The notes beneath the pieces are model-generated. The model had not been told where the DNA came from and did not search any database. It was given only the letters and a program-made list of their open reading frames with translations. A DNA stretch of 64,000 nucleotides from Thermoanaerobaculia bacterium (lineage in GTDB: Bacteria > Acidobacteriota > Thermoanaerobaculia > Gp7-AA8), in the NCBI GenBank assembly GCA_017883205.1, contig JADGNZ010000005.1:30989-94988 (forward strand). Direction: 5' to 3'. A program made the position numbers and the translations under genes. Positions 21,722-54,688 of the stretch are shown here, piece after piece; the first letter of the stretch is position 1; each line of letters begins with the position of its first letter.

Positions 21722-23860
21722 TCACGCTTGTTTGATCGCCGCCAGCACTCGCTCCGGCGTCATTGGCAGGCGGTACATCCGCACGCCGGTTGCGTCGAAC
21801 ACCGCATTGGCGATCACGGCGCCCATGGGCACGATGGCCGGCTCGCCGCCGCCTTGTGGCGCGAGGTCGTCATTCTTGATCAGCACCGTCTCGATGTGCG
21901 GCGCGACTGCGGCGAAACGCGGCAGCTCGTAGGTGTCGAAGTTCTTGTCAAGGATGTCGCCGCCGTTGAACTTCAGCTCCTCGCTCAGCACGTAGCCGAG
22001 GCCCATGTTGACGCAGCCGGACATCTGCATCTTCGCGCCCCATGGGTTGATGACCAGCCCCATGTCCTGTGCAGCGACGACACGCTTCACGTTGATCGCG
22101 CCCGTCTTCCGATCGACCGCGACTTCGGCGGCGATCGCGCAGTAGGTGCCGACGTCGAGAGCGACGGCGATGGCGCGCCCCTGCCCCGATGGCCCTGCGC
22201 CCGCTTTCCATCCGAACGCATCGGCTGCCGCCTTCAGTACGCGGCGCAGCCGTTCGTCCGACGCATTGCGCAGGCGGAACTCGAGCGGATCGATCTTCGA
22301 CGCGGCGGCCATGATGTCGATCTGCGACTCGCGGGCGAAGACATTCGGCCCCGCGCCTGGAGCACGCCACGGCCCGGTAGCGAACGGATGGACATTCTCG
22401 CCCCCTGAACGCCGGCCGAGGTACGTTTTTACGCGGACGTTCGGTACGTCGTACAGAACCTCGGACGAGCCGTTCCCGGCGGCGTAAACGTGGTAGTCCC
22501 ACATCGAAATCTTCCCGGCGTCGTCGACGGTCGAGTTGATTTTCACCACCGAGGCGGGGCCGAAAGTGTCGAAGAAAAACTCCTCGGCCCGCGTCCACAC
22601 GACGGCTACCGGCTTGCCGGTGATCTTCGCCAGTTGGGTAGCCTCGACGCCTTGCTCGGTGGGACTCTTCCCGCCGAAACCGCCGCCGACAAACGGCGTG
22701 ATGACGCGCACGCTCTTCTCCTCGAGGCCGAGTACGTTCGCGATGCGTGTGCGCGCACCGAACGGGCTCTGCGTCGATGCCCACACCGTCATCTTCCCGT
22801 CCTTCCACTCCGCGAGCGCGGTGTGCGGCTCCATCGGGGCATGGGCGACGTAACCGGTGCGGAACGTCGACTGGAAGACGCGGGTGCCCGCGGCGGTGCT
22901 GGTGACGTCGCCGTGCGACGTTACCGCCTCGCCGTCACCGCCGGTCTTTACGAAGTAGCCGGCGACCGATTCGGTGTCGAACGCGGCGGTAGGCCGATCC
23001 CACTCGGCCTTGATCAGCGCCAGCGCTTCATGGGCGCGCTCGGGATCACCATGTAGCACGGCGACAAGGTCGTCGTGCTCGACGACCGTCACGCCGCTCA
23101 TGGCCTTCGCCTTCGAGGTGTCGAGCGACTTGCGCGTTGCCCCGTGCATCGGCGGGCGGAGAATGCGGGCATAGAGCATGCCTGGTACTCGGATGTCGCC
23201 CGCGTACTTCGCGCGGCCGGTCACCTTCTCGTGAGCGTCCATCCGCTTCACCGGCGTTCCGATGGCCTTGAATTGCTTGACCGTGCGCAGCACGGCCTTC
23301 TCGCCGACGAGCCGCGCGATCTGTTTCCCCTTCGCCAGCTCGCCGTACGTGACCTTCTGCGAACCGTTCGACACCACACCGTTCTCGACGACGAGCTGCT
23401 CTTTCGGGCTCCCGAGCTTCTCTGATGCCAGCTTCATCAGCACAGCCCGCGCCTCGGCCGCCGCTGCGCGCACTGCCGGGCCGAACATCCGCGTCGACTG
23501 CGAGCCCCACGTGCCGGCGTCCCACGGACACAGATCGGTGTCGCCCATGACCATGGTGATCGAATCGAGCGAGACACAGAGCTCCTCGGCCGCCATCTGA
23601 GCCAGCGACGTGTGTACGCCCTGACCCATCTCGATTTTTCCGGAGAAGAGCGTCACGCCTCCGCTCTCATCGATCCGCAGATAGGCGTTGAGATCCTCGG
23701 GATAGCCGCGCCGCTGCGCGAGTAGATCGGCCGGCTTCGACGTCATCAGCACGACGATGCCGCCGCCGAGGAGCTTGCAGAAAAGGCGGCGATCGAGCCC
23801 GGTGGCGATTCCGGGCGAAGACGTTTCGGCCGGAGGGAAGGGCCACGACTGCGCTGTCAT
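21722..23860 (-). CDS. Molybdopterin-dependent oxidoreductase, large (MoCo-binding) subunit of the xanthine dehydrogenase / aldehyde oxidase family (IorB/CoxL-like), Tat signal
   Basis: 712-aa ORF. N-terminal twin-arginine motif 'DRRLFCKLLGGGIVVL'. Family-typical segments (GVTLFSGKIEMGQG, GQGVHTSLAQMAAEEL, FGGKS...). Overlaps the small-subunit gene by 4 nt. Confidence 0.9.
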   Translation of the reverse strand: MTAQSWPFPPAETSSPGIATGLDRRLFCKLLGGGIVVLMTSKPADLLAQRRGYPEDLNAYLRIDESGGVTLFSGKIEMGQGVHTSLAQMAAEELCVSLDSITMVMGDTDLCPWDAGTWGSQSTRMFGPAVRAAAAEARAVLMKLASEKLGSPKEQLVVENGVVSNGSQKVTYGELAKGKQIARLVGEKAVLRTVKQFKAIGTPVKRMDAHEKVTGRAKYAGDIRVPGMLYARILRPPMHGATRKSLDTSKAKAMSGVTVVEHDDLVAVLHGDPERAHEALALIKAEWDRPTAAFDTESVAGYFVKTGGDGEAVTSHGDVTSTAAGTRVFQSTFRTGYVAHAPMEPHTALAEWKDGKMTVWASTQSPFGARTRIANVLGLEEKSVRVITPFVGGGFGGKSPTEQGVEATQLAKITGKPVAVVWTRAEEFFFDTFGPASVVKINSTVDDAGKISMWDYHVYAAGNGSSEVLYDVPNVRVKTYLGRRSGGENVHPFATGPWRAPGAGPNVFARESQIDIMAAASKIDPLEFRLRNASDERLRRVLKAAADAFGWKAGAGPSGQGRAIAVALDVGTYCAIAAEVAVDRKTGAINVKRVVAAQDMGLVINPWGAKMQMSGCVNMGLGYVLSEELKFNGGDILDKNFDTYELPRFAAVAPHIETVLIKNDDLAPQGGGEPAIVPMGAVIANAVFDATGVRMYRLPMTPERVLAAIKQA

Positions 23861-24330
23861 CGGGCACCTCCAGTCTTCGACGCGTCTTCGATCGCGGCGA
23901 TGATTCCCTGATGCGCCCCGCAGCGGCAGAGGTTCCCGTTCATCTCATCGACGATGGCGCTGCGCGAGGGGTGTGGCTGCTTCTGCAGCAAGGCCCAGGC
24001 GTTCATGAGCATCCCTGAGGTGCAGTAGCCGCACTGGAACCCACCGTGCTCGATGAAGGCCTGTTGCAGCGGATGCAGCTTTCCGCCGTGCTCGAGCCCT
24101 TCGACGGTGACCACGTTCTTGTTTTCAACGTCGGCCAACGAAGTCTGGCAGGACCTCACTGCAGTGCCGTTGACGGCGACCGTGCAGGCGCCGCACAGGC
24201 CCTCGCCGCAGCCGAATTTCGTGCCAGTGAGGTTGAGATCGGTGCGGATGACCCAGAGCAGTGTGCGCCGGTCGTCGGTGTCGAGGGTTACGGGCTGGCC
24301 GTTCAGGTGGAACCGGATGCTCTTCTTCAC
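23857..24330 (-). CDS. (2Fe-2S)-binding small subunit of the Mo-hydroxylase (IorA/CoxS-like)
   Basis: Two Cys clusters: plant-ferredoxin-like CGEGLCGAC and the second 2Fe-2S motif GFQCGYCTSG...CRCG. Start trimmed from the track's 24408 to GTG 24330, which has a GGAGG Shine-Dalgarno 7 nt upstream (seen on the minus strand at 24336-24340) and a family-typical N-terminus VKKSIRFHLNG. Confidence 0.85.
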   Translation of the reverse strand: MKKSIRFHLNGQPVTLDTDDRRTLLWVIRTDLNLTGTKFGCGEGLCGACTVAVNGTAVRSCQTSLADVENKNVVTVEGLEHGGKLHPLQQAFIEHGGFQCGYCTSGMLMNAWALLQKQPHPSRSAIVDEMNGNLCRCGAHQGIIAAIEDASKTGGAR

Positions 24331-24470
24331 GCGAGCCTCCTGCGTTAGGGGGTCAATGGTATCGCATGAGCTGCGAACTTTTCCTTCGCGGAGGTCACTC
24401 CAACGCACGGGTTCCCGTCCCGCTCGATGGGGCGCATACTAGCTCCTATGTCATCGCCGAACCGAACCTC

Positions 24471-25022
24471 ATGACACCCGGCGAGTACCTCGATCTCGAA
24501 CGGAAATCAGAGATCCGAAGTGAGTACATCGCCGGCCGCATGTTCGCGATGTCGGGAGCGAGCCGGCGACACGGTCTGATCGCCGGTAACCTGTTTCGGG
24601 AGATCAGCTCCCAGATGCGCGGCAGAGCATGCGAGGCGCATATTAACGACCTGCGCGTCAAAGTCAGCCCGACTGGTATGTACACGTATCCAGACATCGT
24701 CGCCCTCTGCGGCGAGGCGCAACTCGAAGACGAGCACTTCGACACGCTTCTCAATCCGACAGTGATCGTAGATGTGCTTTTCGATTCGACTGAGGCGTAT
24801 GACCGTGGGGAGAAGTTCGCGCACTACCGACGTCTCGACACGCTGCGCGAGTATGTCCTCGTCTCTCAGGACAAGATCCGCATCGAACGCTTCCGGCGCG
24901 AGGGAGATGAGTGGACTCTCTCCGAGGTCAGCGGCCCGGACGCAACTCTGCACCTAGAATCGATCGACTGCCACGTCGCCGTCGGCGCGATCTACGAAAA
25001 AGTCGATTTCGGTCCTAGCTGA
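24471..25022 (+). CDS. Uma2-family (DUF820) putative endonuclease
   Basis: Characteristic N-terminus MTPGEYLDLERKSEIRSEYIAGRMFAMSGASRRHGLIAGNL... and ~184-aa size. Start chosen at in-frame ATG 24471; the track ORF begins at 24261 in Arg/Gly-rich sequence. Confidence 0.8.
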   Translation: MTPGEYLDLERKSEIRSEYIAGRMFAMSGASRRHGLIAGNLFREISSQMRGRACEAHINDLRVKVSPTGMYTYPDIVALCGEAQLEDEHFDTLLNPTVIVDVLFDSTEAYDRGEKFAHYRRLDTLREYVLVSQDKIRIERFRREGDEWTLSEVSGPDATLHLESIDCHVAVGAIYEKVDFGPS

Positions 25023-25189
25023 GAATCGTGGGCCCAGGCCACCGTGCGGCGGTGGCTCAGAAATCCATCGAGGATCGCATGCGGATCTGTCCGTCTGATT
25101 GGGTCTCTCCCCCAAACACATGACGCTATTCCCTGCGGTTGCGGGATGGAGCTTCGCGGCGCGGAAGATCACTGTCGGCGCATGCAAAA

Positions 25190-26590
25190 GGAGAAGTCAT
25201 GAGCATGCATCGCCGGGGACTCGGATTCCTCTGTCTTTTATCGGCGCTTCTCATCTTCATCAAAGTCCCTTCAGCGAGTGCGATTCCGGCATTTGCTCGT
25301 AAGTACGAGACATCCTGCCAGACGTGCCACACCGGCTTTCCGAAGCTGAATCCGTTCGGCGAAGCTTTCCGGCTCAATGGCTATCGGATGCCGAAGGAGA
25401 CCGAGGAGCAGATCAAGATCAAGCCGGTCAGCCTTGGCGCCGAGGCGTACAAGAAGATGTGGCCGAGGGCGATCTATCCAAGCGATCTGCCCGGACAGGT
25501 GCCGCTTGCGCTGAACGTGAAGATGGCCAGCGTCTACGCATCGTCACTCGATGACAGCGGTCATACGATCGTGCACAACGACTTTCAGTTTCCGCAGGAA
25601 GCGAATCTCTTCGCCGGCGGCACGCTCGGCGAGCACATGAGCTTTCTCGGCGAGGTCACCTGGTCCGAGAACCCGGACGGCAGCAGCTCCACCGAGATCG
25701 AGCGCTTGCATCTGCAGGCGGGATCGTTCATCGGGCCCGAGCACCTGTTCAACATCAAGATCGGCAAGTTCGCAGCCGACCTCGACGACGGGTTCCACGA
25801 GATGTGGCTGTCGACCGACAACGGGGTCGACAATCTGTTCACCTTCAATCCCATCGGATTGCACGGGGGGACGGGGCTCTCCGATGCGGGCGCCATCAGC
25901 CTTCCGGTGAACGTGAAAGGAATCGAGGCGTACGGGGTAGCCAAGCACCGCTGGTTCTATACCGTGGGCGTCGTCAACGGCCTCGGCCCCTCCGCCAGCG
26001 GCAATGTCGATGGCAATGCCAGCAAGGACGTTTACGCCCGAGTCGATTACAAGTTCGGCGGAATGGGGCTCGACGGCGACTCCACAGGTGTGACGCTGCC
26101 GCCGGAGAACTGGAGGGAGCGGTCGTTCCGCGTCGGTGTTCTCGGGTATCACGGCAACGGTTCCGGGGTCGATTTCCCGCTCACCGACGATACCGGTGCC
26201 ACCGTGAATGTTCAGGATCGCACCTTCAACCGCGCCGGGATCTTCGCCTCCTGGTACTACGACGATCTCAATGTCTTCGGCGTGGCCATGAGCGGGCGGG
26301 ATCGCCTCGACACGTTCGCGGCGGATGGATCTCTCTCCAATGCACAGAGCTTCCGCTACAACTCCTGGTTCGTTCAATCGGATTACGTGATTCTGCCGCC
26401 GCTTCAGGCATCGCTTCGGTATGAAAGCGTCACGCCGCCGGGCGCGGCGGGAGTCAAGTCTCTTCGCGCGCTCAATGCCAGCATGGCCTACTTCTTCTAC
26501 GCCAACGTGAAGACGATGGTCGAGTACCGGCGCGACCTGAGCGAGTCGAAGAACTACCAGCTCTCGACCATCCTTCGCTTCGCCTTCTGA
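25190..26590 (+). CDS. Secreted protein with N-terminal c-type heme-binding motif (CQTCH) fused to a predicted outer-membrane beta-barrel (ends ...QLSTILRFAF); 'heme-porin'
   Basis: AAGGAG Shine-Dalgarno at 25179-25184, ATG at 25190. Signal peptide MSMHRRGLGFLCLLSALLIFIKVPSASA. Single CxxCH at residues ~40-44 of the mature protein. Alternating amphipathic strands, Gly/aromatic-rich, and a C-terminal Phe as in OMP beta-barrels. The next gene starts 25 nt downstream with its own SD. Confidence 0.75.
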   Translation, partial: GEVMSMHRRGLGFLCLLSALLIFIKVPSASAIPAFARKYETSCQTCHTGFPKLNPFGEAFRLNGYRMPKETEEQIKIKPVSLGAEAYKKMWPRAIYPSDLPGQVPLALNVKMASVYASSLDDSGHTIVHNDFQFPQEANLFAGGTLGEHMSFLGEVTWSENPDGSSSTEIERLHLQAGSFIGPEHLFNIKIGKFAADLDDGFHEMWLSTDNGVDNLFTFNPIGLHGGTGLSDAGAISLPVNVKGIEAYGVAKHRWFYTVGVVNGLGPSASGNVDGNASKDVYARVDYKFGGMGLDGDSTGVTLPPENWRERSFRVGVLGYHGNGSGVDFPLTDDTGATVNVQDRTFNRAGIFASWYYDDLNVFGVAMSGRDRLDTFAADGSLSNAQSFRYNSWFVQSDYVILPPLQASLRYESVTPPGAAGVKSLRALNASMAYFFYANVKTMVEYRRDLSESKNYQLSTILRFAF

Positions 26591-26603
26591 CCACATTCCC
26601 AAC

Positions 26604-26609
26604 AAGGAG
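26604..26609 (+). promoter_or_regulatory. Shine-Dalgarno AAGGAG for the cupredoxin gene (7-nt spacing to ATG 26616)
   Basis: Read directly: aacAAGGAGatactcATG. Confidence 0.7.
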
Positions 26610-26615
26610 ATACTC

Positions 26616-27191
26616 ATGAAAGCTGTCATCGCATCACTCATCGCACTCCTGGCCCTGCCGCTCATTGCCGGCGACATTCACGGCAAAGTCACCGCGCATA
26701 GCGTTCGCAATTCCGCCGATGCCATCGTCTACGTCGACAAGATCGCGGGGAAGACGTTCCCGCCACCCGCGGCGCACGCGAAGATCGACCAGAAGAACAT
26801 GCAGTTCTTGCCGCACGTGCTGGCGGTTGTGGCCGGCACGACGGTCGACTTCCTCAACTCCGACGCCGTTCTCCACAACGTCTTCTCGCCCGACGCCTGC
26901 GCCGATCACTTCAACCTCGGAACGTGGCCGCAAGGGCAGTCGAAGAGCTTCACCTTCAAGAAGGAGTGCTTCGCGTCGCTCCTGTGCAAAGTCCATTCGG
27001 AGATGGAGGGCTTCGTAGCCGTGCTGCCGACGCCGTACTTCGCCGTAACGGCTGCCGACGGCTCGTACGACATCAAAGACGTCCCCGACGGGACATACAC
27101 CGTAAAGGTCTGGCACCCGAAGCTGAAGGCGGCCACCAAGAGCGTCACCGTGAAGGGCGCGACCGAGGCGAGCTTCGAGATCGCGAAGTGA
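26616..27191 (+). CDS. Cupredoxin (type-1 blue copper, amicyanin-like C-x2-H-x2-M site) fused to a carboxypeptidase-regulatory-like beta-sandwich; secreted
   Basis: Signal peptide MKAVIASLIALLALPLIAG. Candidate copper ligands His (VLHNVF), Cys-His-Met in 'LLCKVHSEMEG'. C-terminal 'TAADGSYDIKDVPDGTYTVKVWHPKL' is CarbPepD_reg-like. Confidence 0.75.
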   Translation: MKAVIASLIALLALPLIAGDIHGKVTAHSVRNSADAIVYVDKIAGKTFPPPAAHAKIDQKNMQFLPHVLAVVAGTTVDFLNSDAVLHNVFSPDACADHFNLGTWPQGQSKSFTFKKECFASLLCKVHSEMEGFVAVLPTPYFAVTAADGSYDIKDVPDGTYTVKVWHPKLKAATKSVTVKGATEASFEIAK

Positions 27192-27194
27192 GCC

Positions 27195-29030
27195 ATGAGC
27201 GGCGCCGAGCACAATCAGGAGTGGCTGGAGCGTAACTTCCCGTGCAAGCAGGCTTGTCCTGTCCACACGGAAGCCGGGAAGTACGTGACCCTGATTGCGC
27301 AGGGGCGCTTTCGCGAGGCGTACGCCGTCGCCCGCAGACCGAATCCGCTTGCGTCGATCTGTGGGCGCATCTGCGCCGCTCCCTGCGAAGCGGTCTGCCG
27401 CCGCGGTGAGATCGATGCGCCGATCTCGATTCGCGCCCTCAAGCGGTTCGTCACCGAGAAGTTCGGCGTGGAGAGCATGCTCGACTTCTCGGTGCTCACC
27501 GAGATCTACGGCGACCGAACCAATCGCTACCCGGAGAAGGTGGCCATCATCGGCTCCGGTCCTGCCGGCCTGGCATGCGCGCACGACCTGGCGCTCCTCG
27601 GGTATCACGCCACGATCTTCGAAGCCGCTCCCGTCGCCGGCGGGATGCTGCGCCTCGGCGTTCCCGAATACCGCCTGCCGCGCGCCCTGATTCAGCTCGA
27701 GATCAACGCCATCCTCTCGCTCGGCGTGGAGCTGAAGACGAACGTCCGGATCGGCAAAGACCTGACGCTCTCGCAACTGAAGGCCGACGGATACGCGGCG
27801 ATCTTCCTCGGCGTCGGCTCGATGAAGAGCCGCGAGCTGGCCATCGAGGGACTCGAGCTCGACGGCGTGCTCCGCGGCATCGACTACCTCCTCAACATCA
27901 ACCTCGGCTACAAGGTCGAGATGGGGAAGAAGGTCATCGTGATCGGAGGCGGCAACGTCGCCCTCGACGTGGCCCGCACCGCTGCACGCGGGGGCGAGCA
28001 GACGAACATGCAACGCAACCTCTCGATCGTGCAGGCGATGGATGTGGCGCGCAGTGCGGTCCGCTTCGGCGCGCGCGACGTGACCGTCTGCTGCCTGGAG
28101 TCGGAGAGCGAGATGCCCGCCGCGAAGGATGAAGTTGAGGAGGCCTCGACCGAAGGAATCCGCTTCGCCTACCGGCTTGGTCCCAAACGGATCGTCGGCG
28201 CAAACGGCGTGACCACGGGCGTCGAGTTTCTGCGCGTATCGCGCGTCTTCGATGAGACCGGGCGCTTCGATCCGAAGTACACCGCAGGCTCGGAGACGGT
28301 CATCGAAGCCGACACCGTGATCGTCGCCATCGGCCAGACCGGCGACTTCGCCTTCCTGCAGCCGGAGGACGGTGTGGAGACGCGTGGCGGGCGGATCATC
28401 ATCGACCCCGACTCGCTGGCCACCACCGCGCCGGGCATCTTCGCCGGCGGCGACGCCGCGTTCGGGCCGCGCATCGCCATCAGCGCGGTGGCCGATGGCA
28501 AGCGCGCCGCGAAGTCGATCGACACCTTGCTGCGAGGAGTGGCGCGTCCGAGCGACGACACCTCCGTCGAAGTCATCATCGAGCCTCGCTGGGATCGCGA
28601 GCTCGACTTCGAAGGGATTCCGCGGCAGAAGCCTCCATCCCGGCCGCTTGCGCGGCGAATCGGCATCGCCGAGGTCGAGGAGTGCTTCAGCGAGCACACG
28701 GCGCGGCGCGAGGGAAGCCGCTGTCTCCGCTGCTGGACCAACACGATCTTCGATCAGAACGCCGCCGCGGGAACCGAGTGCATCCTCTGCGGCGGATGCC
28801 AGGACATCTGTCCGGAGCATTGCATCGCCATCGTCCCCGCGGCGCGCGTGATCTCGCTGCCGTCCGATGCCATCGAGCTCGCGCCGATCCTTCTCGAGAA
28901 CCGCTGGGTGGGCTCGGTCATGCTCAAGAACGAAGAGGTCTGCATTCGCTGCGGACTCTGCGCGGTGCGCTGTCCCGTGGGCACGATCACCATGCGCAGC
29001 TTCCACCGAAAGGAGAGCGACGTTGCCTGA
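27195..29030 (+). CDS. GltD-like FAD/NAD(P)H-dependent oxidoreductase with N-terminal Cys cluster and C-terminal 2x[4Fe-4S] ferredoxin domain (glutamate-synthase small-subunit / DPD subunit-A family)
   Basis: Two Rossmann GxGxxG motifs (VAIIGSGPAGLACAH; VIVIGGGNVALDVA). N-terminal C-x-x-x-C / CGRICAAPCEAVC. C-terminal CILCGGCQDICP and CIRCGLCAVRCP. Starts 4 nt after the cupredoxin stop. Confidence 0.9.
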   Translation: MSGAEHNQEWLERNFPCKQACPVHTEAGKYVTLIAQGRFREAYAVARRPNPLASICGRICAAPCEAVCRRGEIDAPISIRALKRFVTEKFGVESMLDFSVLTEIYGDRTNRYPEKVAIIGSGPAGLACAHDLALLGYHATIFEAAPVAGGMLRLGVPEYRLPRALIQLEINAILSLGVELKTNVRIGKDLTLSQLKADGYAAIFLGVGSMKSRELAIEGLELDGVLRGIDYLLNINLGYKVEMGKKVIVIGGGNVALDVARTAARGGEQTNMQRNLSIVQAMDVARSAVRFGARDVTVCCLESESEMPAAKDEVEEASTEGIRFAYRLGPKRIVGANGVTTGVEFLRVSRVFDETGRFDPKYTAGSETVIEADTVIVAIGQTGDFAFLQPEDGVETRGGRIIIDPDSLATTAPGIFAGGDAAFGPRIAISAVADGKRAAKSIDTLLRGVARPSDDTSVEVIIEPRWDRELDFEGIPRQKPPSRPLARRIGIAEVEECFSEHTARREGSRCLRCWTNTIFDQNAAAGTECILCGGCQDICPEHCIAIVPAARVISLPSDAIELAPILLENRWVGSVMLKNEEVCIRCGLCAVRCPVGTITMRSFHRKESDVA

Positions 29031-29040
29031 ACTGGAAGGA

Positions 29041-29520
29041 ATGTTCGGTCCCGAGGTTGAGGAGGAGGAGACGCCAGGCCGTCGCGACTTCTTCACGCAG
29101 ATCGGCGTTGGCGCCTGCGCGGTCGTTGCCGTCGCCTCCGGCATCGTGACGCTCGACTATCTCGAGCCGAAAGTGCTTTTCGAGCCGTCGACGACGTACG
29201 TAGCCGGCTCGCCACTCGACTTCGCTCCCGGCGTGGTCGTCCCCAATCAGGAGAAGAAAGCGTTCGTGATCGGTGCGGCCAACGGCATCTATGCGCTCTC
29301 CGCCGTCTGCACGCACCTCGGCTGCATCACCCGATACAAGTCCGATGAAAGCGCGATTGCCTGCCCCTGCCATGGCAGCCGCTTCGATCTCGAAGGGAAC
29401 GTTACACACGGACCAGCCCCGCGCCCGCTGCCGTGGCTCGACGTCAGCCAGGACGCGAATGGCAATCTCGTCGTCGACACCGGCATCGTCATCGCGCGCG
29501 GAAAGGTGTTCCGGCCATGA
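29041..29520 (+). CDS. Rieske [2Fe-2S] protein of a cytochrome bc-type complex, Tat-like RRDFF leader
   Basis: Box I CTHLGC and box II CPCHGS present. SD GGAAGGA precedes ATG 29041. The track ORF starts earlier, at 28867, in Arg/Ser-rich junk overlapping the previous gene. Confidence 0.9.
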
Positions 29521-30254
29521 CCGTCGGGGAGTGGGTTCGCAACACGTCTGTCTACCGGTCGGTGATCCGGCACGGCATCGCGCCGACGAATCGCAACCGG
29601 TCGTTGATCATCTTCGAGAACCTTTTCCTCCACGTCCATCCCGTGAAGGTGCGGGAGAAGACCCTTCGTTTCACGCACACCTTCTGGCTCGGCGGCATCA
29701 CGCTGGCCAGCACGATCATCCTCGTGGCCACGGGCATCCTGCTGATGTTCTATTACCACCCGTCCGTGCCGCAGGCGTACCGCGACATGAAGGAGCTGCA
29801 GTACGTCGTCGACAACGGCGTCTTCCTGCGCAACCTCCACCGCTGGTCGGCGCACCTGATGGTGTTCAGCGCGTTCCTGCACATGCTGCGCGTCTTCTAC
29901 CACCGCGCCTACCGTCCCCCCCGCCAGTTCAACTGGGTTGTCGGCGTGGTGCTGCTACTCCTGACTTTGTTGCTGTCATACACGGGCTACCTGCTGCCGT
30001 GGGACCAGCTCGCGTTCTGGGGTGTCTCGGTCGGAACGAACATGGCCAAGCAGGCACCGCTGGTCGGCGAGCGCGTCCGCTTCTTCCTCCTCGGCGGCAA
30101 CATCGTCTCGGAGAACGCGCTGCTCCGGTTCTACGTGCTGCACTGCGTCGTCCTGCCGGTAGCGCTTCTGCTCCTCATCTCCGTTCACATCTGGCGTGTG
30201 CGAAAGGACGGGGGAGTGCAGGGACCGCCTGACGACGAGAGGAGATCGCTGTGA
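29517..30254 (+). CDS. Cytochrome b, N-terminal (heme-binding, b6-like) half
   Basis: ATGA overlap with the Rieske stop. Conserved cytochrome-b segments ([47 protein letters not shown]) including the paired His ligands. Confidence 0.9.
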
Positions 30255-30952
30255 CGACACCGATCGAGATCATCGAATCTGACGATCCGCTTGCCAATCC
30301 GTGGCGCGTCGCGCTCGTGCGTCCGGACGGGCGCCCGGCTGTTCACGAGACCGACGAGCGCTACGTCATGACGTTTCCACACCTGATCCTGCGCGAGATC
30401 ATCCTCTTTCAGGTCGTGGTAATCGTCCTCTCGCTTGCGGCGATCCTCTTCAACGCGCCGCTGGAGAGCATCGCTAATCCGGTGGAGACGCCGAATCCGG
30501 CCAAGGCGCCCTGGTACTTCCTCGGTCTTCAGGAATTGCTGCACTACTTTCCGCCGGTCGTGGCCGGAGTGGTGTTGCCGGCGCTTGTCGGCATCTGTCT
30601 GGTGGTCATTCCGTACTGGCGCGTCAATCTCGAAGGAGCACCGCTGTGGGCGGCGCCGTCGCGATGGAAGGCTCCGGCGATCGCGGCGTCGGTCATCCTG
30701 CTTTCGATCCTCTTCGCCGCGTTCAGTTGCTGGCCGATCGTCATACCGACCGTCATCATCGGCGTGGCCATGTTCGCGGCCCATGCCGTGCGCCCGGGCG
30801 GCCGCTGGCAGTGGTTGTGGGGCGTCACGCTGCCGGAATGGATCATGACGTGGTTCGTCGTGATCGCTGTGGTGTTGACCGTGATCGGAACGTTCTTCCG
30901 CGGGCCAGGCTGGAGTTGGGTCTGGCCGTGGATGGACGCACCCCGAGGGTGA
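30251..30952 (+). CDS. Cytochrome b C-terminal half / subunit-IV-like (PEWY-type loop '[13 protein letters not shown]')
   Basis: Overlaps the previous stop by 4 nt. Polytopic membrane protein with a PEWY-equivalent motif, as in split b6/SUIV cytochromes. Confidence 0.85.
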
Positions 30953-30957
30953 GGAGG
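30951..30957 (+). promoter_or_regulatory. Shine-Dalgarno GAGGAGG for the octaheme cytochrome gene (GTG start 30963)
   Basis: ggtGAGGAGGccgatGTG read directly. Confidence 0.6.
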
Positions 30958-30962
30958 CCGAT

Positions 30963-32990
30963 GTGACATTGCGACGACTCTTCGCCCTTTCCAGCCTGGC
31001 CTTTCTCATCGTCCTGGCTTTCTCGCCGGTGAAGAACGCGCTGCGGCCGTACCGCGCATTGCAGCGCCAGTTTCGAGTCGTGGGGATTGCCAGGGCGTCG
31101 AGCGGGAAGGCGGCGGAGGTGTATTCGTCCCGTCCGATCGCGATCCAGCAGGTCTGGATTCCGGAACTGAACAATCGCGTCGATCGATGCACGACCTGTC
31201 ACCTCGGCGTTGTGGACGCCGCCATGACCAGCGCGCCGGAGCCGTTCCGCACGCACCCGCCGACCTTCCACACGCCCCGCGACGTTCAGCGTTTCGGATG
31301 CACGGCCTGCCACGGCGGCGAGGGGCTGGCCACCGACGAAGAGGACGCGCACGGAACCTCGGCAGACGCGACATCTCCGATCCTTCCTACGGAATTCATC
31401 GAGGCGGGATGCGGGCGCTGTCATGACGCCGAGGCCGTTCGCGACGCGCCCACGCTCTCGGCCGGCCGCGCGCTGATGACGAAGTCGAACTGCTTCGCCT
31501 GCCACAAAGCCCGCGGCCACGAAGACTTCCGCGCCGACGCCCCGCCACTCGAGACGCTGTCGATGAAGACCGGTGCTGAATGGCTGCGGCGCTGGCTCAG
31601 CAATCCGAAGGCGGTCGACGCCAACGCCACGATGCCGAACTTCCAGCTCACCGGCGACGACATCAAGGTTCTGTCGCACTATCTCTTCGCGCGTCCCGTC
31701 CCGCCGCAATTGCAGCACGCCATCGAGCTGGCGGGAGCGGAGCCGAACGGCGATTCCGCCCGCGGCAAGACCCTCTTTGCCGAGTCACGATGCATCTCCT
31801 GCCACACGGTCGGTGGCAAGGGGAACGGTTCCGCTCCGGAGCTGGGAACGATCGCGTCGCGCGCTTCGCGCGGATGGCTGATCGCCTTCGTCCGCGATCC
31901 GCATGCGTTCTATCCGCAGACGAAGATGCCGCGGTACTCATTCACAGACGCGGACGTGCGCGACATCGTGGCCTGGTTCGAGGACGAGTTGAAAGACTTC
32001 GACGCGCCCGCGGACATCCTGACGCCCTTGCGCGTCAATCAGACGTTCGCCGAAAAAGGGGAGAAGCTGTTCAAGAGCGCAGGCTGCTTCGCCTGCCACA
32101 GCGGTGTGAAGGAAGGCGAGCGATTCGGACCCGATCTCTACGGCATCGGAGAGCTCAAGGCCACATCGCTCGACTTCGGCAAGCGCTCGGACCTGCCGCG
32201 AACGCTCGCGGCGTGGCTCGATGCGAAGATCAGCACACCACGATCCTTCGCCTCGGGTCTGAAGATGCCCACCTTCGCCTTCGACGCCGCGCAGAAGCGC
32301 GCCATCGTCACGGCGCTGCTGGCCATTCCCGCCATTCCCGTGCCGGATGCCTATCGCTCAACGCCGGTGCAGCAGGCCGCCATCGTTCCGGCCGGTCCGG
32401 TCGGCGAGATCATGACCCGCTATCGCTGCCTCTCATGCCATCAGATCGGCAGAGCCGGCGGCGACATCTCGACCGCGCCACTGACGTTTGAAGGAAGCAA
32501 GGTCAATCACGACTGGCTGGTCAACTATCTCGCAGTGCCGTATTCGATCCGGCCGATCATCGCCGAGCGGATGCCGGTCCTGAAGGTCTCGAAAGAAGAG
32601 GCCGGGAAGTTGGCGGATGCGATCGCGATGATCTATGTCGATCCATCGACGCCTGACGACCCGTTCCTGGGCCGGCCCGCATCCGATCATGATGCGGCCG
32701 AGGGAGAACGGCTTTACACGACGTTCGGCTGCCGCTCCTGTCACATCATCGGCAAGACCGGAGGGTATTACGGGCCGCCGTTGACGGAGACGAAGGCACG
32801 CCTGAAGCCGGGCTGGGTGTTCCGCTTCCTGCAGAACCCGCAGCGCTGGCGCGCCGACGTCCGCTGCCCCAACTACGGCATGACCGATACCGACGCGTTG
32901 CGTCTGACCGCGTATCTCGAGACGCTGGCCGAGGCGCCGGCGGTGCCTGTGGCGGCGGCCGCGCCAGCGCGGAAGGAGGCCGCGAAATGA
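30963..32990 (+). CDS. Octaheme c-type cytochrome (8 CxxCH), N-terminal membrane anchor/signal
   Basis: CxxCH motifs CTTCH, CTACH, CGRCH, CFACH, CISCH, CFACH, CLSCH, CRSCH counted in the translation. Hydrophobic N-terminus LFALSSLAFLIVLAFSPV. Confidence 0.9.
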   Translation: MTLRRLFALSSLAFLIVLAFSPVKNALRPYRALQRQFRVVGIARASSGKAAEVYSSRPIAIQQVWIPELNNRVDRCTTCHLGVVDAAMTSAPEPFRTHPPTFHTPRDVQRFGCTACHGGEGLATDEEDAHGTSADATSPILPTEFIEAGCGRCHDAEAVRDAPTLSAGRALMTKSNCFACHKARGHEDFRADAPPLETLSMKTGAEWLRRWLSNPKAVDANATMPNFQLTGDDIKVLSHYLFARPVPPQLQHAIELAGAEPNGDSARGKTLFAESRCISCHTVGGKGNGSAPELGTIASRASRGWLIAFVRDPHAFYPQTKMPRYSFTDADVRDIVAWFEDELKDFDAPADILTPLRVNQTFAEKGEKLFKSAGCFACHSGVKEGERFGPDLYGIGELKATSLDFGKRSDLPRTLAAWLDAKISTPRSFASGLKMPTFAFDAAQKRAIVTALLAIPAIPVPDAYRSTPVQQAAIVPAGPVGEIMTRYRCLSCHQIGRAGGDISTAPLTFEGSKVNHDWLVNYLAVPYSIRPIIAERMPVLKVSKEEAGKLADAIAMIYVDPSTPDDPFLGRPASDHDAAEGERLYTTFGCRSCHIIGKTGGYYGPPLTETKARLKPGWVFRFLQNPQRWRADVRCPNYGMTDTDALRLTAYLETLAEAPAVPVAAAAPARKEAAK

Positions 32991-33379
32991 GACGACGCAG
33001 TCTGCTGATCGTGATCGCGCTTGTTCTCGTTGCGACGTCGTGCCGCCGCGCGAATCGCCCCGCGTCCGCCGTCGCCATCGCGCGGCCCACGCAGTACGAA
33101 TTGCGGCTCGGCAAAGAGGTCTACCAGAGCTACTGCATAGGATGCCACGGCGACAGCGGCGCCGGCGACGGGTTCAACGCATTCAATCTCGATCCGCATC
33201 CACGGGATCTGAGCGATCCCGTGTTTCAGAAGGGGAAGTCGAACGCCGAGCTCGCCGACGCCATCCGCCGCGGCGGCGCCGGTGTCGGACTGACCAGCCT
33301 CATGCCGCCATGGGGTCACACGCTCGACGACCGGCACATCGACGCCGTCGTCGTGTACATCCGTTCGATGAAGAGATAG
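32987..33379 (+). CDS. Monoheme class-I cytochrome c (CIGCH), lipoprotein-type signal (LVATSC)
   Basis: 130 aa, single CxxCH, conserved Met-containing distal region (LMPPWG). 4-nt overlap with the octaheme gene. Confidence 0.85.
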   Translation: MRRRSLLIVIALVLVATSCRRANRPASAVAIARPTQYELRLGKEVYQSYCIGCHGDSGAGDGFNAFNLDPHPRDLSDPVFQKGKSNAELADAIRRGGAGVGLTSLMPPWGHTLDDRHIDAVVVYIRSMKR

Positions 33380-33383
33380 GGAA

Positions 33384-33418
33384 TCGGGAGTCGGGGGTCG
33401 GGAGTCGGGGGTCGGAGC
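33384..33418. repeat. Heptamer tandem repeat (TCGGGAG/TCGGGGG)x5 in the intergenic region after the cytochrome operon
   Basis: Read directly: tcgggagtcgggggtcgggagtcgggggtcggagc. Confidence 0.6.
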
Positions 33419-33512: not shown

Positions 33513-34226
33513 TTGATCGCGGCGATATTCGTCACGATCGGAGACTGGCGGCGCCGTTTGAACCTGGCAGACCATGATGAAGAGCTGGCGACACTCTTTC
33601 AGTCGCTCGAACATTCGCCCGATGCCGTCTTCGTGACGGACCGCACGAACCACATCGTCTTCTGGAACGAAGCCGCGCGCCACATGCTCGGGTTCACCGC
33701 CGACGAGGCCATCGGCGGCCACTGCGATCGTCTCCTCGGCGGCAGCGACCCGTTCGGCAACCGCTATTGCACCGACGAGTGTCCGATCATGCGCATCGCC
33801 AACCGCGGCGAGATCGTGCGCAATTTCTCGCTCAATCTGCGCACGAAGGAGAGCCAGCACGTCGTCACACAAGTGAGCGTCCTCCAGCTTCGTGCCGGCG
33901 GTCCCGACGACTACTACCTCGTGCACATGCTTCGCGCGAACGCGGAGCCGGCAGAGCAACGCCCGATCAACGAACCGGTGAGCTCTTCCCGTCCGCGGCT
34001 CGTGGCCGCGCGCGAATCGATCGATGTCCGTGCGCGCAAACTGACCGGCCGCGAAGTCGAGGTGCTCGGAATGCTCGCCGCCGGCCGCACCACTCCCGAG
34101 ATCGCCGAGCGCCTGCACATCGCCCAGCTCACCGCCCGCAGCCACATCCAGAACATTCTGGAGAAGCTCGAAGTGCACTCCAAAGTGGAAGCGGTGGCAT
34201 TCGCGTTTCAGAAGAACCTGATTTGA
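33513..34226 (+). CDS. PAS-domain + LuxR-type HTH transcriptional regulator
   Basis: PAS-like segment (SPDAVFVTDRTNHIVFWNEAARHMLGF...). C-terminal LuxR/GerE HTH (LTGREVEVLGMLAAGRTTPEIAERLHIAQLTARSHIQNILEKL). Start uncertain (TTG at 33513 per the track). Confidence 0.8.
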   Translation: MIAAIFVTIGDWRRRLNLADHDEELATLFQSLEHSPDAVFVTDRTNHIVFWNEAARHMLGFTADEAIGGHCDRLLGGSDPFGNRYCTDECPIMRIANRGEIVRNFSLNLRTKESQHVVTQVSVLQLRAGGPDDYYLVHMLRANAEPAEQRPINEPVSSSRPRLVAARESIDVRARKLTGREVEVLGMLAAGRTTPEIAERLHIAQLTARSHIQNILEKLEVHSKVEAVAFAFQKNLI

Positions 34227-35555: not shown

Positions 35556-36281
35556 ATGCCGGAAACGCAGACTGCAGGGGACATCCTTACGATCCGCCAG
35601 CTTGCGGAGTACCTCATGGTGTCCGAGAAGACGGTCTACCGGATGCTGGACCGGAACGAGTTGCCGGCGATGCGGGTGGGGTCGCAGTGGCGTTTCCGGA
35701 AGCTCGACATCGACAGTTGGCTGACCGAGGAGGTTCGCCGCGTGGAGCACGAAGGGCAGCTCGGGGCGCTCGATGCGCTCGAGATGTCCGAGATCGCGAT
35801 CACGCCGCTCCTCACGCCGGAGAACATCTGGCTCTCCATCACGCCCGCGTCGCGCGACGAATTGCTTGCATTCCTGACGCGCGAGGCGTCGATCGATGCT
35901 CACGTCGACCGCGACCAGCTCTTGCGATCGATCCGCGAGCGCGAGGCCATCTGCTCGACGGCGGTCCTCGAAGGTGCTGCCTTCCCTCATCCGGTCGATC
36001 CACGTCCGTTCCGGTTTTCACGCAAGCGCGTCCTCCTGGCCGTGCTTCGTGAGCCTCTCGACTTCCTCGATCCGCATGGCCACCATCCACGGGTCGTTGC
36101 CGTGATCCTGGCGCGCTCCATTCAGGGGCAACTGCTCGCGTTCTCCCGCGCCATCAAGCTGTTCGCCGATTCCGTTCTCCTCAACAGGCTGCACGCTGTT
36201 CGAACGCCGGACGAGGCGATTCGCCTGATCGGTGACGCCGAAGCGCTGCTTTCGCGGGCCACTCGCAAGGAGGACGCATGA
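35556..36281 (+). CDS. Excisionase/MerR-type HTH fused to PTS EIIA(Ntr)-like (EIIA type-2) domain regulator, paralog 1
   Basis: N-terminal 'LTIRQLAEYLMVSEKTVYRMLDRNELPAMRVGSQWRF' (excisionase-family HTH). C-terminal EIIA-2-like region with 'GAAFPHP' His motif. Confidence 0.8.
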   Translation: MPETQTAGDILTIRQLAEYLMVSEKTVYRMLDRNELPAMRVGSQWRFRKLDIDSWLTEEVRRVEHEGQLGALDALEMSEIAITPLLTPENIWLSITPASRDELLAFLTREASIDAHVDRDQLLRSIREREAICSTAVLEGAAFPHPVDPRPFRFSRKRVLLAVLREPLDFLDPHGHHPRVVAVILARSIQGQLLAFSRAIKLFADSVLLNRLHAVRTPDEAIRLIGDAEALLSRATRKEDA

Positions 36282-36937
36282 AGCTTACGATCGGTGAAGC
36301 AGCGTCCCTTCTCGGGAGTGCCGAAGAGCGCGTGCATGACTGGATCGAAAGTGAGGCGCTCCCGGCTCAGAAGGTCCGCGGACAGTACCGGATCAATCGT
36401 TCCGACCTGCTCGAGTGGGCCACGGAGCACAACATGGGCCTCTCGCCGCGCGCATTCAGCCGCGACGGAGGAACCCCGTCGCTCGCGGATGCGCTTCGGG
36501 CAGGCGGGGTCCATCACCGGATCGGCGGAGCGGACCTCGCCACAATCATCAAAGGGATCGTCGAGCTGCTGCCGCTCCCGGACGATGCCGATCGCGACAT
36601 GCTCTTGCACATCCTTCTGGCGCGCGACACACTCGGCGTCACACCGGTCGGCGATGGCATTGCCATTCCGCACGTGCGGACGCCGATCATCCTCGCCCCT
36701 ACGGATGCGGTGATCGCGCTCTCCTTCCTCACGAATCCGCTCGATCTCCACGCTCCGGATGGCCGGGCCATCGACACTTTCTTCCTCCTCATCTGTCCGA
36801 CGATCCACATGCACCTGGCGATGCTCGCCAAACTCGCCTACGGCCTGAAGGACGAAGCCTTCCGCGAGGCCGTTCGCCGGCGGGCCTCTCCGGAGGAAAT
36901 CGTGCAGATCGCAACGGCGCTTGAAGGGGCATTTTGA
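36278..36937 (+). CDS. Excisionase-type HTH + PTS EIIA(Ntr)-like domain regulator, paralog 2
   Basis: 'LTIGEAASLLGSAEERVHDWIESEALPAQKVRGQYRI' HTH. EIIA-2 signature 'GDGIAIPHVR'. 4-nt overlap with paralog 1 and with the downstream membrane-subunit gene. Confidence 0.8.
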   Translation: MKLTIGEAASLLGSAEERVHDWIESEALPAQKVRGQYRINRSDLLEWATEHNMGLSPRAFSRDGGTPSLADALRAGGVHHRIGGADLATIIKGIVELLPLPDDADRDMLLHILLARDTLGVTPVGDGIAIPHVRTPIILAPTDAVIALSFLTNPLDLHAPDGRAIDTFFLLICPTIHMHLAMLAKLAYGLKDEAFREAVRRRASPEEIVQIATALEGAF

Positions 36938-42369: not shown

Positions 42370-42371
42370 GG

Positions 42372-43802: not shown

Positions 43803-43803
43803 G

Positions 43804-45312: not shown

Positions 45313-45498
45313 GGCAGAAGGATGAGGGCAGAAGGATGAAGGATGAAGTACGAAAAGAGCTTTCACGATTTGGTTTGGGAAATGCGAAAAACGAGGACAG
45401 AAATGAGATTTCGTAAGCTGGGCAGCCATTCATCCTTCATCCCTCATCCTTCATCCTTCAATTCTCATCCTCCATCCTTCATCCTTCATCCTTCTGCC
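45312..45498. repeat. Intra-operon inverted repeat (GAGGGCAGAAGGATGAAGGATGAAG ... CTTCATCCTTCATCCTTCTGCCCTC) enclosing ~100 bp, with tandem heptamers (AAGGATG / CATCCTT)n on each arm
   Basis: Read directly at 45312-45349 and 45432-45498. The arms are reverse complements over >=22 bp. Positioned between the large-subunit stop and the ferredoxin/NuoB-like start (ATG 45504), which lacks a Shine-Dalgarno. Confidence 0.75.
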
Positions 45499-45503
45499 CT
45501 CCC

Positions 45504-54676: not shown

Positions 54677-54688
54677 GATGGCTCTCCC

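Follow-up and report, generated by a model that had tools for sequence, protein, structure and literature searches.

A 64-kb window (the whole stretch of DNA analysed, 64,000 nucleotides of contig JADGNZ010000005.1 from a Thermoanaerobaculia bacterium of the Acidobacteriota, with a G+C content of ~65%) contains a cluster of eight genes for redox proteins, which is the subject of this report. The nearest relative contig belongs to a metagenome-assembled genome (MAG), also of Thermoanaerobaculia, whose cytochrome b is 99% identical. All eight open reading frames (ORFs) are on the + strand of the window, within 25199-33379, and have a G+C content at third codon positions (GC3) of 0.79-0.86. In order, they encode a Cyc2-family fused monohaem cytochrome c-porin (gene 1, 25199-26590, 463 aa, with alternative starts at GTG 25196 and TTG 25139), a periplasmic type-1 copper protein, or cupredoxin, with a C-terminal CarboxypepD_reg-like β-sandwich (gene 2, 26616-27191, 191 aa), a cytoplasmic GltD/NfnB-like iron-sulfur flavoprotein that binds flavin adenine dinucleotide (FAD) and nicotinamide adenine dinucleotide or its phosphate (NAD(P)) and has an extra C-terminal 2x[4Fe-4S] domain (gene 3, 27195-29030, 611 aa), a Rieske [2Fe-2S] protein with a twin-arginine (Tat) signal (RRDFF) and an N-terminal membrane anchor (gene 4, 29023-29520), a short b6-like, four-helix cytochrome b (gene 5, 29517-30254, 245 aa), a subunit IV-like membrane protein with five hydrophobic helices and an APWY motif at the quinol-oxidising (Qo) site (gene 6, 30251-30952, 233 aa), a membrane-anchored octahaem cytochrome c (gene 7, 30963-32990, 675 aa), and a small periplasmic monohaem class I cytochrome c with His/Met ligation, possibly a lipoprotein (gene 8, 32987-33379, 130 aa). 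The haem-binding motif CxxCH occurs once in gene 1, eight times in gene 7 and once in gene 8.

The genes are closely packed. The Cyc2 stop codon at 26590 is separated from the cupredoxin ATG at 26616 by a 25 nt gap that holds an AAGGAGA ribosome-binding site, the gap between the end of gene 2 (27191) and the start of gene 3 (27195) is 3 nt, and that between the end of gene 6 (30952) and the start of gene 7 (30963) is 10 nt. Genes 4 and 5 (29520/29517) and genes 7 and 8 (32990/32987) overlap in ATGA, and genes 5 and 6 (30254/30251) overlap in GTGA. The Rieske gene could start at ATG 29041, 10 nt beyond the stop codon of gene 3 at 29030, or at TTG 29023, which lies behind a GGAGAG ribosome-binding site and overlaps gene 3 by 8 nt; the TTG is the more likely start. 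An earlier reading of the nucleotide sequence by a model (the first-pass annotation) described an eight-gene operon here, and its ORFs, haem motifs, domains and spacing (gaps of at most 25 nt, or overlaps) are as it described them, although the position it gave for the operon start, 25190, falls in a ribosome-binding site, the first ATG being at 25199. This spacing fits co-transcription of the eight genes. In a weak consensus scan, compared with shuffled sequence, no + strand promoter-like sites were found in the scanned operon region, and the two weak + strand terminator-like matches are at 24362, upstream of the operon, and at 25215, within the Cyc2 signal-peptide codons. On both strands together three terminator-like sites were found, against 6.0 expected from shuffling, none of them at a gene junction. 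Separate transcription of the GltD-like gene, which the first-pass annotation had raised as an objection to its own proposal, was rejected, as this weak scan detected no internal promoter- or terminator-like signal above shuffled expectation.

Gene 1 has no Pfam or NCBIfam matches at all, and its family was recognised from the definition of Cyc2 proteins by Keffer et al. 2021 (PMC8406198), that is, AXPXFAR[Q/K][T/Y] ahead of the haem site and PXL four residues beyond, in a protein of at least 365 aa with an OprO/OprP-like porin. The protein begins with a hydrophobic segment (residues 8-26) ending in ASA, taken as a signal peptide, has its single N-terminal CXXCH at residue 40, and carries both flanking motifs in a haem region reading AIPAFARKY-ETS-CQTCH-TGF-PKL; it exceeds the required length, and its C-terminal part is an OprO/OprP-like β-barrel of ~16 strands. 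An exhaustive HMMER search (E <= 0.001) retrieved 2,864 cluster representatives as homologues, and the strict motif P.FAR[QK][TY] is found in 86 of 116 full-length members among the best 150 matches. We assign gene 1 to the Cyc2 family of fused cytochrome-porins, as a predicted outer-membrane protein. The "heme-porin" of the first-pass annotation therefore belongs to a known family, which was not named there. The signal peptide, N-terminal CXXCH, motifs and porin fold are common to the Cyc2 oxidases of Acidithiobacillus ferrooxidans (Cyc2), Mariprofundus (Cyc2PV-1) and Leptospirillum (Cyt572). Gene 1 differs from these characterised oxidases in that its host phylum is not known for Fe(II) oxidation, and from Cyc2 genes in their described contexts in that its operon also encodes a cupredoxin and a Rieske/cytochrome b-NAD(P) complex. 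It also differs from the porin-cytochrome conduits (MtrAB, PioAB and Ext), which hold a separate multihaem cytochrome in a 20- to 26-strand porin, in having one haem fused to an OprP-like barrel, and none of the operon proteins has a Pfam match to MtrB_PioB.

The two predicted periplasmic carriers were examined, like the other proteins, for invariance of their ligands and motifs among the homologues of each operon protein. Gene 2 matches Pfam Copper-bind over residues 54-136 (27.7 bits, cut-off 21.2) and CarboxypepD_reg/fn3_3 over residues 139-185, has a Sec-type signal peptide, and carries the copper ligands H87, C124, H127 and M130 (CKVHSEM), which are invariant in 66/66 homologues. Similarity to structures in the PDB is only distant (amicyanin and plastocyanin, E about 0.03); the Pfam match together with the invariant ligands settles its identity as a cupredoxin. 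Gene 8 matches Pfam Cytochrome_CBB3 (51 bits), with C50, C53, H54 and M106 invariant in 63/63 sequences and a lipobox-like LVATSC whose Cys19 is kept in 38 of the 63.

Gene 3 is composed of a Fer4_20 module, a FAD site, a NAD(P) site and an extra C-terminal two-cluster ferredoxin domain (Pfam Fer4_20, Pyr_redox_2 and Fer4_7), its NCBIfam matches are of the GltD/NfnB type, and in the PDB it is closest to 9n5u, an "NfnA" chain, and to the GltD-like modules of formate dehydrogenase and molybdopterin oxidoreductase chains. Alignment of its homologues bore out the FAD/NAD motifs and Fe-S ligands expected of a GltD-like protein: GxGxxG, GGGNVAxDxAR and GGD are conserved in 67-68 of 68, and 17 cysteines in at least 66 of 68. 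Neither a signal peptide nor a transmembrane segment was found in the protein, which is predicted to be cytoplasmic and to bind FAD and NAD(P) as well as about four Fe-S clusters. Its NCBIfam scores all fall short of the equivalog cut-offs, the best (PRK12771, a subfamily model) being 440.9 against 516 and that for gltA 287 against 472, and no partner of the GltB or NfnA kind lies beside it, its neighbours being the cupredoxin and Rieske genes. What gene 3 shares with GltD and NfnB is the fold and the cofactor module, not the enzyme function.

The Rieske/cytochrome b part of the operon was compared with a locus of Kuenenia sp. orthologous to Kuste4569-4574, which was retrieved and aligned directly. 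Gene 4 (Pfam Rieske) has CTHLGC and CPCHGS boxes invariant in 76/76 sequences and the Ser/Phe ("SF") tuning pair in 75/76, and its top PDB matches, above the b6f Rieske proteins, are the Kuenenia Rieske chains 9rk4_A (81 bits) and 9rk3_A (63 bits), which their Ser/Tyr and Ser/Phe pairs identify as the Kuste4569 and Kustd1480 proteins studied by Hauser et al. 2025. Gene 5 (Pfam Cytochrome_B, 146 bits) has four haem ligands, H108, H122, H209 and H224, invariant in 81/81 sequences, and so is an extra H39, which aligns with His43 of Kuste4571. In the AlphaFold 3 models of Hauser et al. 2025 (PMC12954380), His43 is proposed to bind one more haem b, placed so as to bridge the Fe-S chain and the cytochrome b dimer. 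At position 57 Kuenenia (TWCMGG) and b6 proteins carry the cysteine that binds haem cn; this CxGG cysteine is lacking in gene 5, where most of the 81 sequences have Y (56) or W (21), and F and C occur in two each. Gene 6 (Pfam Cytochrom_B_C, 21 bits, cut-off 20.7) has five hydrophobic segments, as does the Kuenenia protein, and every position of its APWY Qo stretch is conserved in at least 73 of 77 sequences and has the same letters in Kuenenia; K85, A86, W88, Y89, F90, L93, Q94 and E95 are invariant. Gene 7 is built of an N-terminal transmembrane helix (hydrophobic segment 6-20), four c7/NrfH-like haems and four class I cytochrome c domains (Pfam Cytochrome_C7 and four Cytochrom_C), with all eight CxxCH kept in 64/67 orthologues. 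As an observation of its own, cytochrome b residue H81 in YYHPS (window 29757-29759) is invariant in 81/81 members of the acidobacterial type and is Thr in Kuenenia.

Identity to the Kuenenia orthologues is 53% for gene 5 (Kuste4571, residues 7-237), 38% for the Rieske protein, 35.5% over the full length of 600 aa for gene 3 (Kuste4570), 31% for subunit IV, and 39% for the N-terminal 80 aa of gene 7, the only part that aligns with the hexahaem Kuste4573. Judged by these alignments, genes 3-7 are homologous to the Kuste4569-4573 complex, so that the kinship with anammox complexes proposed in the first-pass annotation holds under direct comparison. Of the features of the anammox type, the Rieske boxes, a short cytochrome b with a five-helix APWY subunit IV, a GltD-like gene, a multihaem cytochrome c and the N-terminal His are present, and the haem cn cysteine is absent. 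The Kuenenia complexes Kuste4569-4574 and Kustd1480-1485 share with the operon the Rieske protein, the b6-like cytochrome b, the five-helix subunit IV with the same Qo motif, a multihaem cytochrome c in place of cytochrome f or c1, and a GltD-like flavoprotein gene within the operon. In contrast to Kuenenia, the flavoprotein gene here precedes the Rieske gene, an octahaem protein with four class I domains takes the place of the hexahaem one, an HAO-like octahaem is absent, a monohaem cytochrome c, a cupredoxin and Cyc2 are added, and the host is a diderm, heterotroph-type member of the Acidobacteriota without an anammoxosome. The union of a Rieske/cytochrome b pair with an NAD(P) iron-sulfur oxidoreductase is, however, more widespread than the first-pass annotation had it, as it is also found outside anammox bacteria (PMC5600118, PMC4122944). 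Two of three Kuenenia cytochrome b sequences (Kuenenia 1 and 2) were grouped with Solibacter sequences by Baymann et al. 2012 (PMC3509893), an APWY clade with a mid-to-high-potential Rieske protein was defined by Kao & Hunte 2014, who suggested reverse operation (PMC4122944), and Dibrova et al. 2017 (PMC5600118) noted that NAD(P)-binding Fe-S oxidoreductases accompany cytochrome b of subfamily G "in many other cases".

Cytochrome b6f and bc1 complexes share with the operon the Rieske ligands, the four b-haem histidines, a split cytochrome b and subunit IV, and the Qo site. They differ in that the operon complex has APWY for PEWY, lacks cytochrome f/c1 and the haem cn cysteine, has two extra subunit IV helices and a cytochrome b N-terminal extension with His39, and includes an NAD(P) flavoprotein gene. 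Gene 5 matches solved b6 sequences only over residues 56-237 (144 bits), more weakly than it matches Kuenenia, and no homologue of c1 or f is found among the operon proteins, the octahaem protein standing in that place. A standard bc1 or b6f complex with unrelated neighbours, against which the first-pass annotation had set its proposal, is ruled out by the APWY motif, the absence of c1/f, the Kuenenia homology and the synteny described below. The closest curated families are those of the Geobacter APWY/Ext (Cbc6) type, ExtP for cytochrome b (270.7 bits, cut-off 290) and ExtQ for subunit IV (45.7 bits), both scores being under the equivalog cut-offs. ExtP, a Geobacter protein, is labelled as the b-type cytochrome of a "selenite/tellurite reduction operon". 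A b6-like inner-membrane complex whose genes lie next to those of an outer-membrane electron conduit has a precedent in the Geobacter Ext cluster: in G. sulfurreducens ExtP and ExtQ adjoin the ExtHIJKL porin-cytochrome conduit, and a further APWY relative is the bc-like complex of the p-cresol methylhydroxylase cluster of G. metallireducens. The Geobacter conduit consists of a porin and separate multihaem cytochromes, with neither a fused monohaem Cyc2 nor a cupredoxin.

To determine how widely the arrangement is distributed, cytochrome b was searched for in one genome per GTDB species, and relatives were found in at least 585 genomes. Conservation was counted in the best 80 of these, with the loci where the contig covers the gene as denominators. 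Almost all of the 80 are Acidobacteriota (Thermoanaerobaculia, Holophagae, Terriglobia, Bryobacterales, Blastocatellia and Vicinamibacterales), and a few are MAGs labelled Eisenbacteria, Bacteroidota or Riflebacteria. The cultured carriers, both Holophagae, are Geothrix campi SG10 (L017) and G. terrae SG184 (L021). Gene order is conserved across the 80, with tight spacing throughout and flanks that differ between loci. The GltD-like gene is present beside the Rieske gene at 68/68 covered loci, the Rieske gene itself at 75/75, subunit IV at 78/78, the octahaem cytochrome at 67/67, the monohaem cytochrome at 58/59, the cupredoxin at 63/66, and a Cyc2-type gene at 55/56, upstream in 49 and downstream of the monohaem gene in 6. 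The eight-gene arrangement is far beyond chance, with the same order in dozens of species-level genomes and different flanks. Two Cyc2 subtypes, the FARKY..TSCxTCH type and the SYARQTGLPCSGCH type, occupy the cluster, upstream or downstream, which indicates selection on the linkage rather than inherited adjacency. That Cyc2 is exchanged for its other subtype and not lost speaks most strongly for a functional tie between it and the complex.

The Cyc2 side was counted in a separate metagenome scan, in which Cyc2 is paired with a cupredoxin in 40/42 loci. An alternative arrangement found there is a stand-alone set of Cyc2, cupredoxin and a dihaem class I cytochrome c (L093, L098 and L129); that these dihaem proteins are cytochrome c peroxidases was ruled out, since they contain class I cytochrome c domains only. 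As the pair is near-universal and its downstream partners vary among the metagenome loci, Cyc2 and the cupredoxin behave as a portable outer module, of which the operon of the Acidobacteriota type is one very successful docking. A separate case is a metagenome contig (L121, 284-10625) with a single + strand array of Cyc2, cupredoxin, monohaem cytochrome c, a NapC/NirT-like pentahaem protein, a Rieske protein, a cytochrome b with fused cytochrome c, an MtrA-like decahaem protein and an MtrB/PioB porin, which combines the Cyc2 and porin-cytochrome routes.

A further parallel is A. ferrooxidans, which has the same cast of an outer-membrane Cyc2, a cupredoxin, class I c cytochromes, a Rieske/cytochrome b complex and an NAD-binding protein. 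In that organism the components are divided between the rus operon (cyc2-cyc1-orf-coxBACD-rus) and the petI operon. The latter contains cycA1-sdrA1-petA1B1C1 (PMC10654088). Here, by comparison, one operon holds all components and lacks oxidase genes, its complex is a split, b6-like one of the APWY type with an octahaem protein rather than a bc1 with cytochrome c1, and a large FeS-flavoprotein takes the place of the short-chain dehydrogenase as NAD(P) protein. The cupredoxin is likened to rusticyanin by its place in the gene set.

We hold the identity and wiring of the operon parts with high confidence. With one protein for each compartment and its ligands conserved, the set is predicted to make up a continuous chain of redox centres from the cytoplasmic NAD(P) site to the haem in the outer-membrane pore: the flavoprotein would be cytoplasmic, the Rieske protein, cytochrome b, subunit IV and the octahaem cytochrome would sit at the inner membrane as an anammox-type complex of the APWY clade (cytochrome b subfamily G), the monohaem cytochrome c and the cupredoxin in the periplasm, and Cyc2 in the outer membrane. 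We infer that the subunits assemble and that electrons pass between them. The most likely function, which we put at about even confidence, would be electron transfer across the envelope, with NAD(P)(H)/menaquinol at one end of the chain and soluble extracellular iron at the other. Menaquinol would be oxidised at the Qo site, and one electron would take the high-potential branch from the Rieske protein to the octahaem cytochrome, then to the monohaem cytochrome c and/or the cupredoxin, and on to the Cyc2 haem. The terminal acceptor would be a soluble extracellular one-electron acceptor that fits the porin, for example chelated Fe(III) or a high-potential shuttle. The low-potential b-haem branch would be joined to the flavoprotein through the His39 site (possibly an extra haem b) and the Fe-S chain. 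It might reduce NAD(P)+, that is, by quinone-based bifurcation as proposed for anammox; or NAD(P)H might feed the b-haem/Qi side, re-reducing quinone, so that all electrons would exit through the Rieske branch. The second mode would amount to a self-contained respiratory chain from NAD(P)H to an extracellular acceptor, with a Q loop. Outward flow, divided roughly evenly between these two modes, is slightly favoured in our judgement, and the chain is probably reversible.

Menaquinone has a potential of about -70 mV and NAD(P) one of -320 mV. Rieske proteins of the SF type are predicted at about +200 to +260 mV (PMC3509893, PMC4122944), the SF-type Kustd1480 Rieske protein has been measured at +335 mV (PMC12954380), and Cyc2 of PV-1 is at +208 mV (PMC8406198). 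Because the Rieske and Cyc2 potentials are high relative to menaquinone and NAD(P), quinone-based bifurcation is feasible, and they could suit a high-potential outlet able to pay for NAD(P)+ reduction from menaquinol. A physical supercomplex reaching the outer membrane, and electron bifurcation itself, both named in the first-pass annotation, are hypotheses, and bifurcation spanning the envelope, in which one menaquinol electron would leave through the cupredoxin and Cyc2 to soluble Fe(III) or shuttles while the other goes uphill to NAD(P)+, is a tentative and rather doubtful proposal. As to the direction of flow, Mehta-Kolte and Bond reportedly found in 2012 that Geothrix fermentans requires unusually high potentials of its acceptors, up to +0.55 V, and releases a shuttle of +0.3 V, and A. 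ferrooxidans is said, in a published model, to run bc1, cytochrome c/rusticyanin and Cyc2 outward in anaerobic Fe(III) reduction, the model having the chain run both ways. Outward flow is favoured because the cluster is present in two cultured isolates of Geothrix, a genus whose members are treated as reducers of Fe(III) and humic substances (PMC6344600, PMC12285243). Elsewhere in the phylum, the term "confirmed Fe(III) reducer" has been applied to Acidobacterium capsulatum, and in soils the pool of Fe(III)-reduction genes is dominated by Acidobacteriia (PMC7980381).

Several observations weigh against an outward, flavoprotein-coupled chain. The biochemically characterised Cyc2 proteins are all Fe(II) oxidases, i.e. 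electron inlets (PMC8406198). Since a single haem enclosed in a 16-strand porin can have no contact with Fe(III) minerals, outward transfer would depend on soluble acceptors, and it is not evident why a heterotroph should produce NAD(P)H from quinol. That the flavoprotein associates with cytochrome b would follow from the operon structure and from analogy with models of the anammox complexes, and since the haem cn of those models is absent here (W/Y57), the path from the b haems to the Fe-S clusters may differ from theirs. Linkage is not obligatory either: in the metagenome scan Cyc2-cupredoxin is followed by the GltD-like gene and Rieske/cytochrome b in only 14 of the 24 loci with room for them. 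The first-pass annotation had staked its proposal on orthologous clusters keeping the GltD-like gene, which is the case at all 68 close loci but not at two distant ones (L152, 5297-15577, and L154), low-GC metagenome contigs with the order cupredoxin-Cyc2-Rieske-cytochrome b-subunit IV-octahaem-monohaem and without that gene. The flavoprotein is therefore an addition to a simpler Rieske/cytochrome b unit that is linked to Cyc2.

That electrons flow inward instead is possible, though we think it rather unlikely. Cyc2 would then oxidise dissolved Fe2+ or a reduced shuttle, the cupredoxin and c cytochromes would pass electrons to the Rieske protein, and a reversed Qo site would reduce menaquinone, with the second, low-potential electron coming from NAD(P)H through the flavoprotein and b haems (confurcation) or being driven by the proton-motive force; menaquinol-dependent reductases, e.g. 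nitrate reductase, would thereby be supplied with iron-derived electrons. The Cyc2 proteins tested so far oxidise Fe(II), and gene 1 has the full family motif; the combination of Cyc2, cupredoxin and class I cytochrome c mirrors the inlet of the A. ferrooxidans rus operon and recurs in the stand-alone dihaem modules (L093, L098, L129); and near-equilibrium energetics imply a reversible reaction. The same direction is suggested by the petI bc1 operon, which carries the NAD-binding SdrA and serves uphill flow (PMC10654088), and by the APWY Qo motif, proposed as a mark of reverse-operating complexes (PMC4122944), although that idea rests on one gene-context argument. Confurcation, however, uses up NAD(P)H, so that it could not supply the reductant that an autotroph requires and would bring little obvious gain to a heterotroph. 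We know of no acidobacterial Fe(II) oxidiser, whereas Fe(III) reducers are known in the phylum (PMC7980381).

A more ordinary explanation, and an improbable one in our view, is a complex III with co-located accessories, passing quinol electrons to the monohaem cytochrome c and the cupredoxin as periplasmic carriers that serve oxidases or N-oxide reductases encoded elsewhere, with Cyc2 as an optional side inlet or outlet and the flavoprotein as an addition for regulation or redox balance. Cupredoxins and class I cytochromes c typically donate electrons to oxidases and reductases, the cluster is found in the mostly aerobic, heterotrophic Terriglobia as well as in anaerobes, and both Cyc2-cupredoxin pairs without the complex and the complex without the GltD-like gene occur. 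Nevertheless, an optional Cyc2 would not be expected to persist at 55 of 56 loci and be swapped for the other subtype rather than lost, nor a mere add-on flavoprotein to be kept at 68 of 68 with all its cofactor ligands invariant, and oxidase or reductase genes do not recur in the cluster flanks. Some carrier genomes (L022, L060, L095 and L099) also hold additional Rieske/cytochrome b pairs, so the complex of the operon is likely to be specialised. Chance or inherited adjacency without joint function has a negligible likelihood and is effectively refuted by the synteny: stop and start codons overlap, the order is kept in dozens of species with unrelated flanks, two Cyc2 subtypes have been recruited independently, and the proteins have complementary topology, one for each compartment.

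Cyc2 and the Rieske/cytochrome b-NAD(P) complex are each already known; their conserved union in one operon and its spread through a phylum appear to be undescribed, as no description of Cyc2 (with or without cupredoxin) linked to a Rieske/cytochrome b-NAD(P) cluster was found in the full-text literature searched, subscription papers being outside its coverage. The first-pass annotation's claim of an undescribed gene order stands to this extent, although the cluster is widespread in Acidobacteriota and no rarity. Acidobacteriota are among the most abundant soil bacteria, and the conserved, phylum-wide module, which leads from NAD(P)/quinol to the outer membrane, is a concrete candidate for the route by which they exchange electrons with iron. 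In metagenomes, Cyc2 serves as a marker gene of iron oxidation; here it occurs in lineages known for Fe(III) reduction or aerobic heterotrophy, and the operon context gives it a defined inner-membrane partner, which could change the reading of Cyc2 matches. One survey counted no oxidative extracellular-electron-transfer genes in Geothrix (PMC12285243). Quinol-driven NAD(P)+ reduction by bifurcation is still only a proposal for the anammox complexes themselves (PMC12954380), and the homologues in culturable Geothrix offer a test system in pure culture. If envelope-spanning bifurcation were true, it would be the first quinone-based bifurcation driven by an extracellular acceptor and the first reductive role for the Cyc2 family outside A. 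ferrooxidans models, and would make Geothrix a culturable model for the anammox complexes. The finding introduces no new principle; it joins open questions to culturable organisms.

Upstream of the operon lies a divergent intergenic region of 790 nt (24409-25198, no strand), presumed by its position only to be a promoter or regulatory region. No sigma-70-like site was found within it, no FNR/CRP box (TTGAT-N4-ATCAA) was found upstream of Cyc2 in the window, an FNR box with at most one mismatch lies upstream of the cluster in 1/51 loci, near background, and an Rfam scan of the whole window including this region gave no matches. The divergent neighbour is an IorAB-like molybdenum hydroxylase pair (21722-24408, - strand), made up of a 2Fe-2S small subunit (23857-24408, - strand) and a large subunit that binds the molybdenum cofactor. 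The pair is absent beside the cluster at L001 and L003 and does not recur among the flanking genes, and so is probably unrelated.

Downstream, a one-component regulator of the PAS-LuxR type (33513-34226, + strand, Pfam PAS and GerE) follows the operon. A regulator of this type is directly upstream or downstream of the cluster at L001-L003, at about 17 of L005-L030 and at many metagenome loci, those with such a neighbour being of the Thermoanaerobaculia and Holophagae type. In eight Terriglobia-type loci a Crp/Fnr-family regulator with an N-terminal CxxC...C motif precedes Cyc2 (e.g. L052, 4364-5167), and no PAS-LuxR homologue was detected in these eight. The PAS-LuxR or Crp/Fnr regulator probably controls the operon. 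Also of the Terriglobia type are L036 (8110-9402) and 20 other loci where a conserved secreted protein of ~430 aa, with no Pfam matches, comes right after the monohaem gene; it may be a ninth cluster member in this clade.

Immediately after the last stop codon is a G-rich tandem repeat (window 33379-33415), which can be read as GGGAGTC x5.3 or as a 14-nt unit x2.3. No hairpin-plus-T terminator was found at 33379-33415, and the repeat might be a G-quadruplex-type or other unconventional terminator element. Further along the + strand (35556-46292), a tandem pair of HTH_17 + PTS_EIIA_2 regulators precedes a complex-I/Mrp-like membrane module with at least two antiporter-like subunits, a NuoH-like, a fused NuoC/D-like and a NuoB-like protein, the last with a 2x[4Fe-4S] domain. 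A [NiFe] hydrogenase was considered for this cluster and ruled out, since the NuoD-like subunit has no CxxC; the module is therefore a hydrogenase-related (Ehr/Mbx-like) complex. On the - strand, a 1731-aa ORF with no Pfam matches and a coding-like GC3 of 0.80 lies at 8743-13938, and at 53276-63041 are the genes of a DUF6519 protein and, after it, of proteins of 1066 aa (with a weak Baseplate_J match) and 996 aa, which together look like part of a phage-tail-like or contractile-injection-type gene set.

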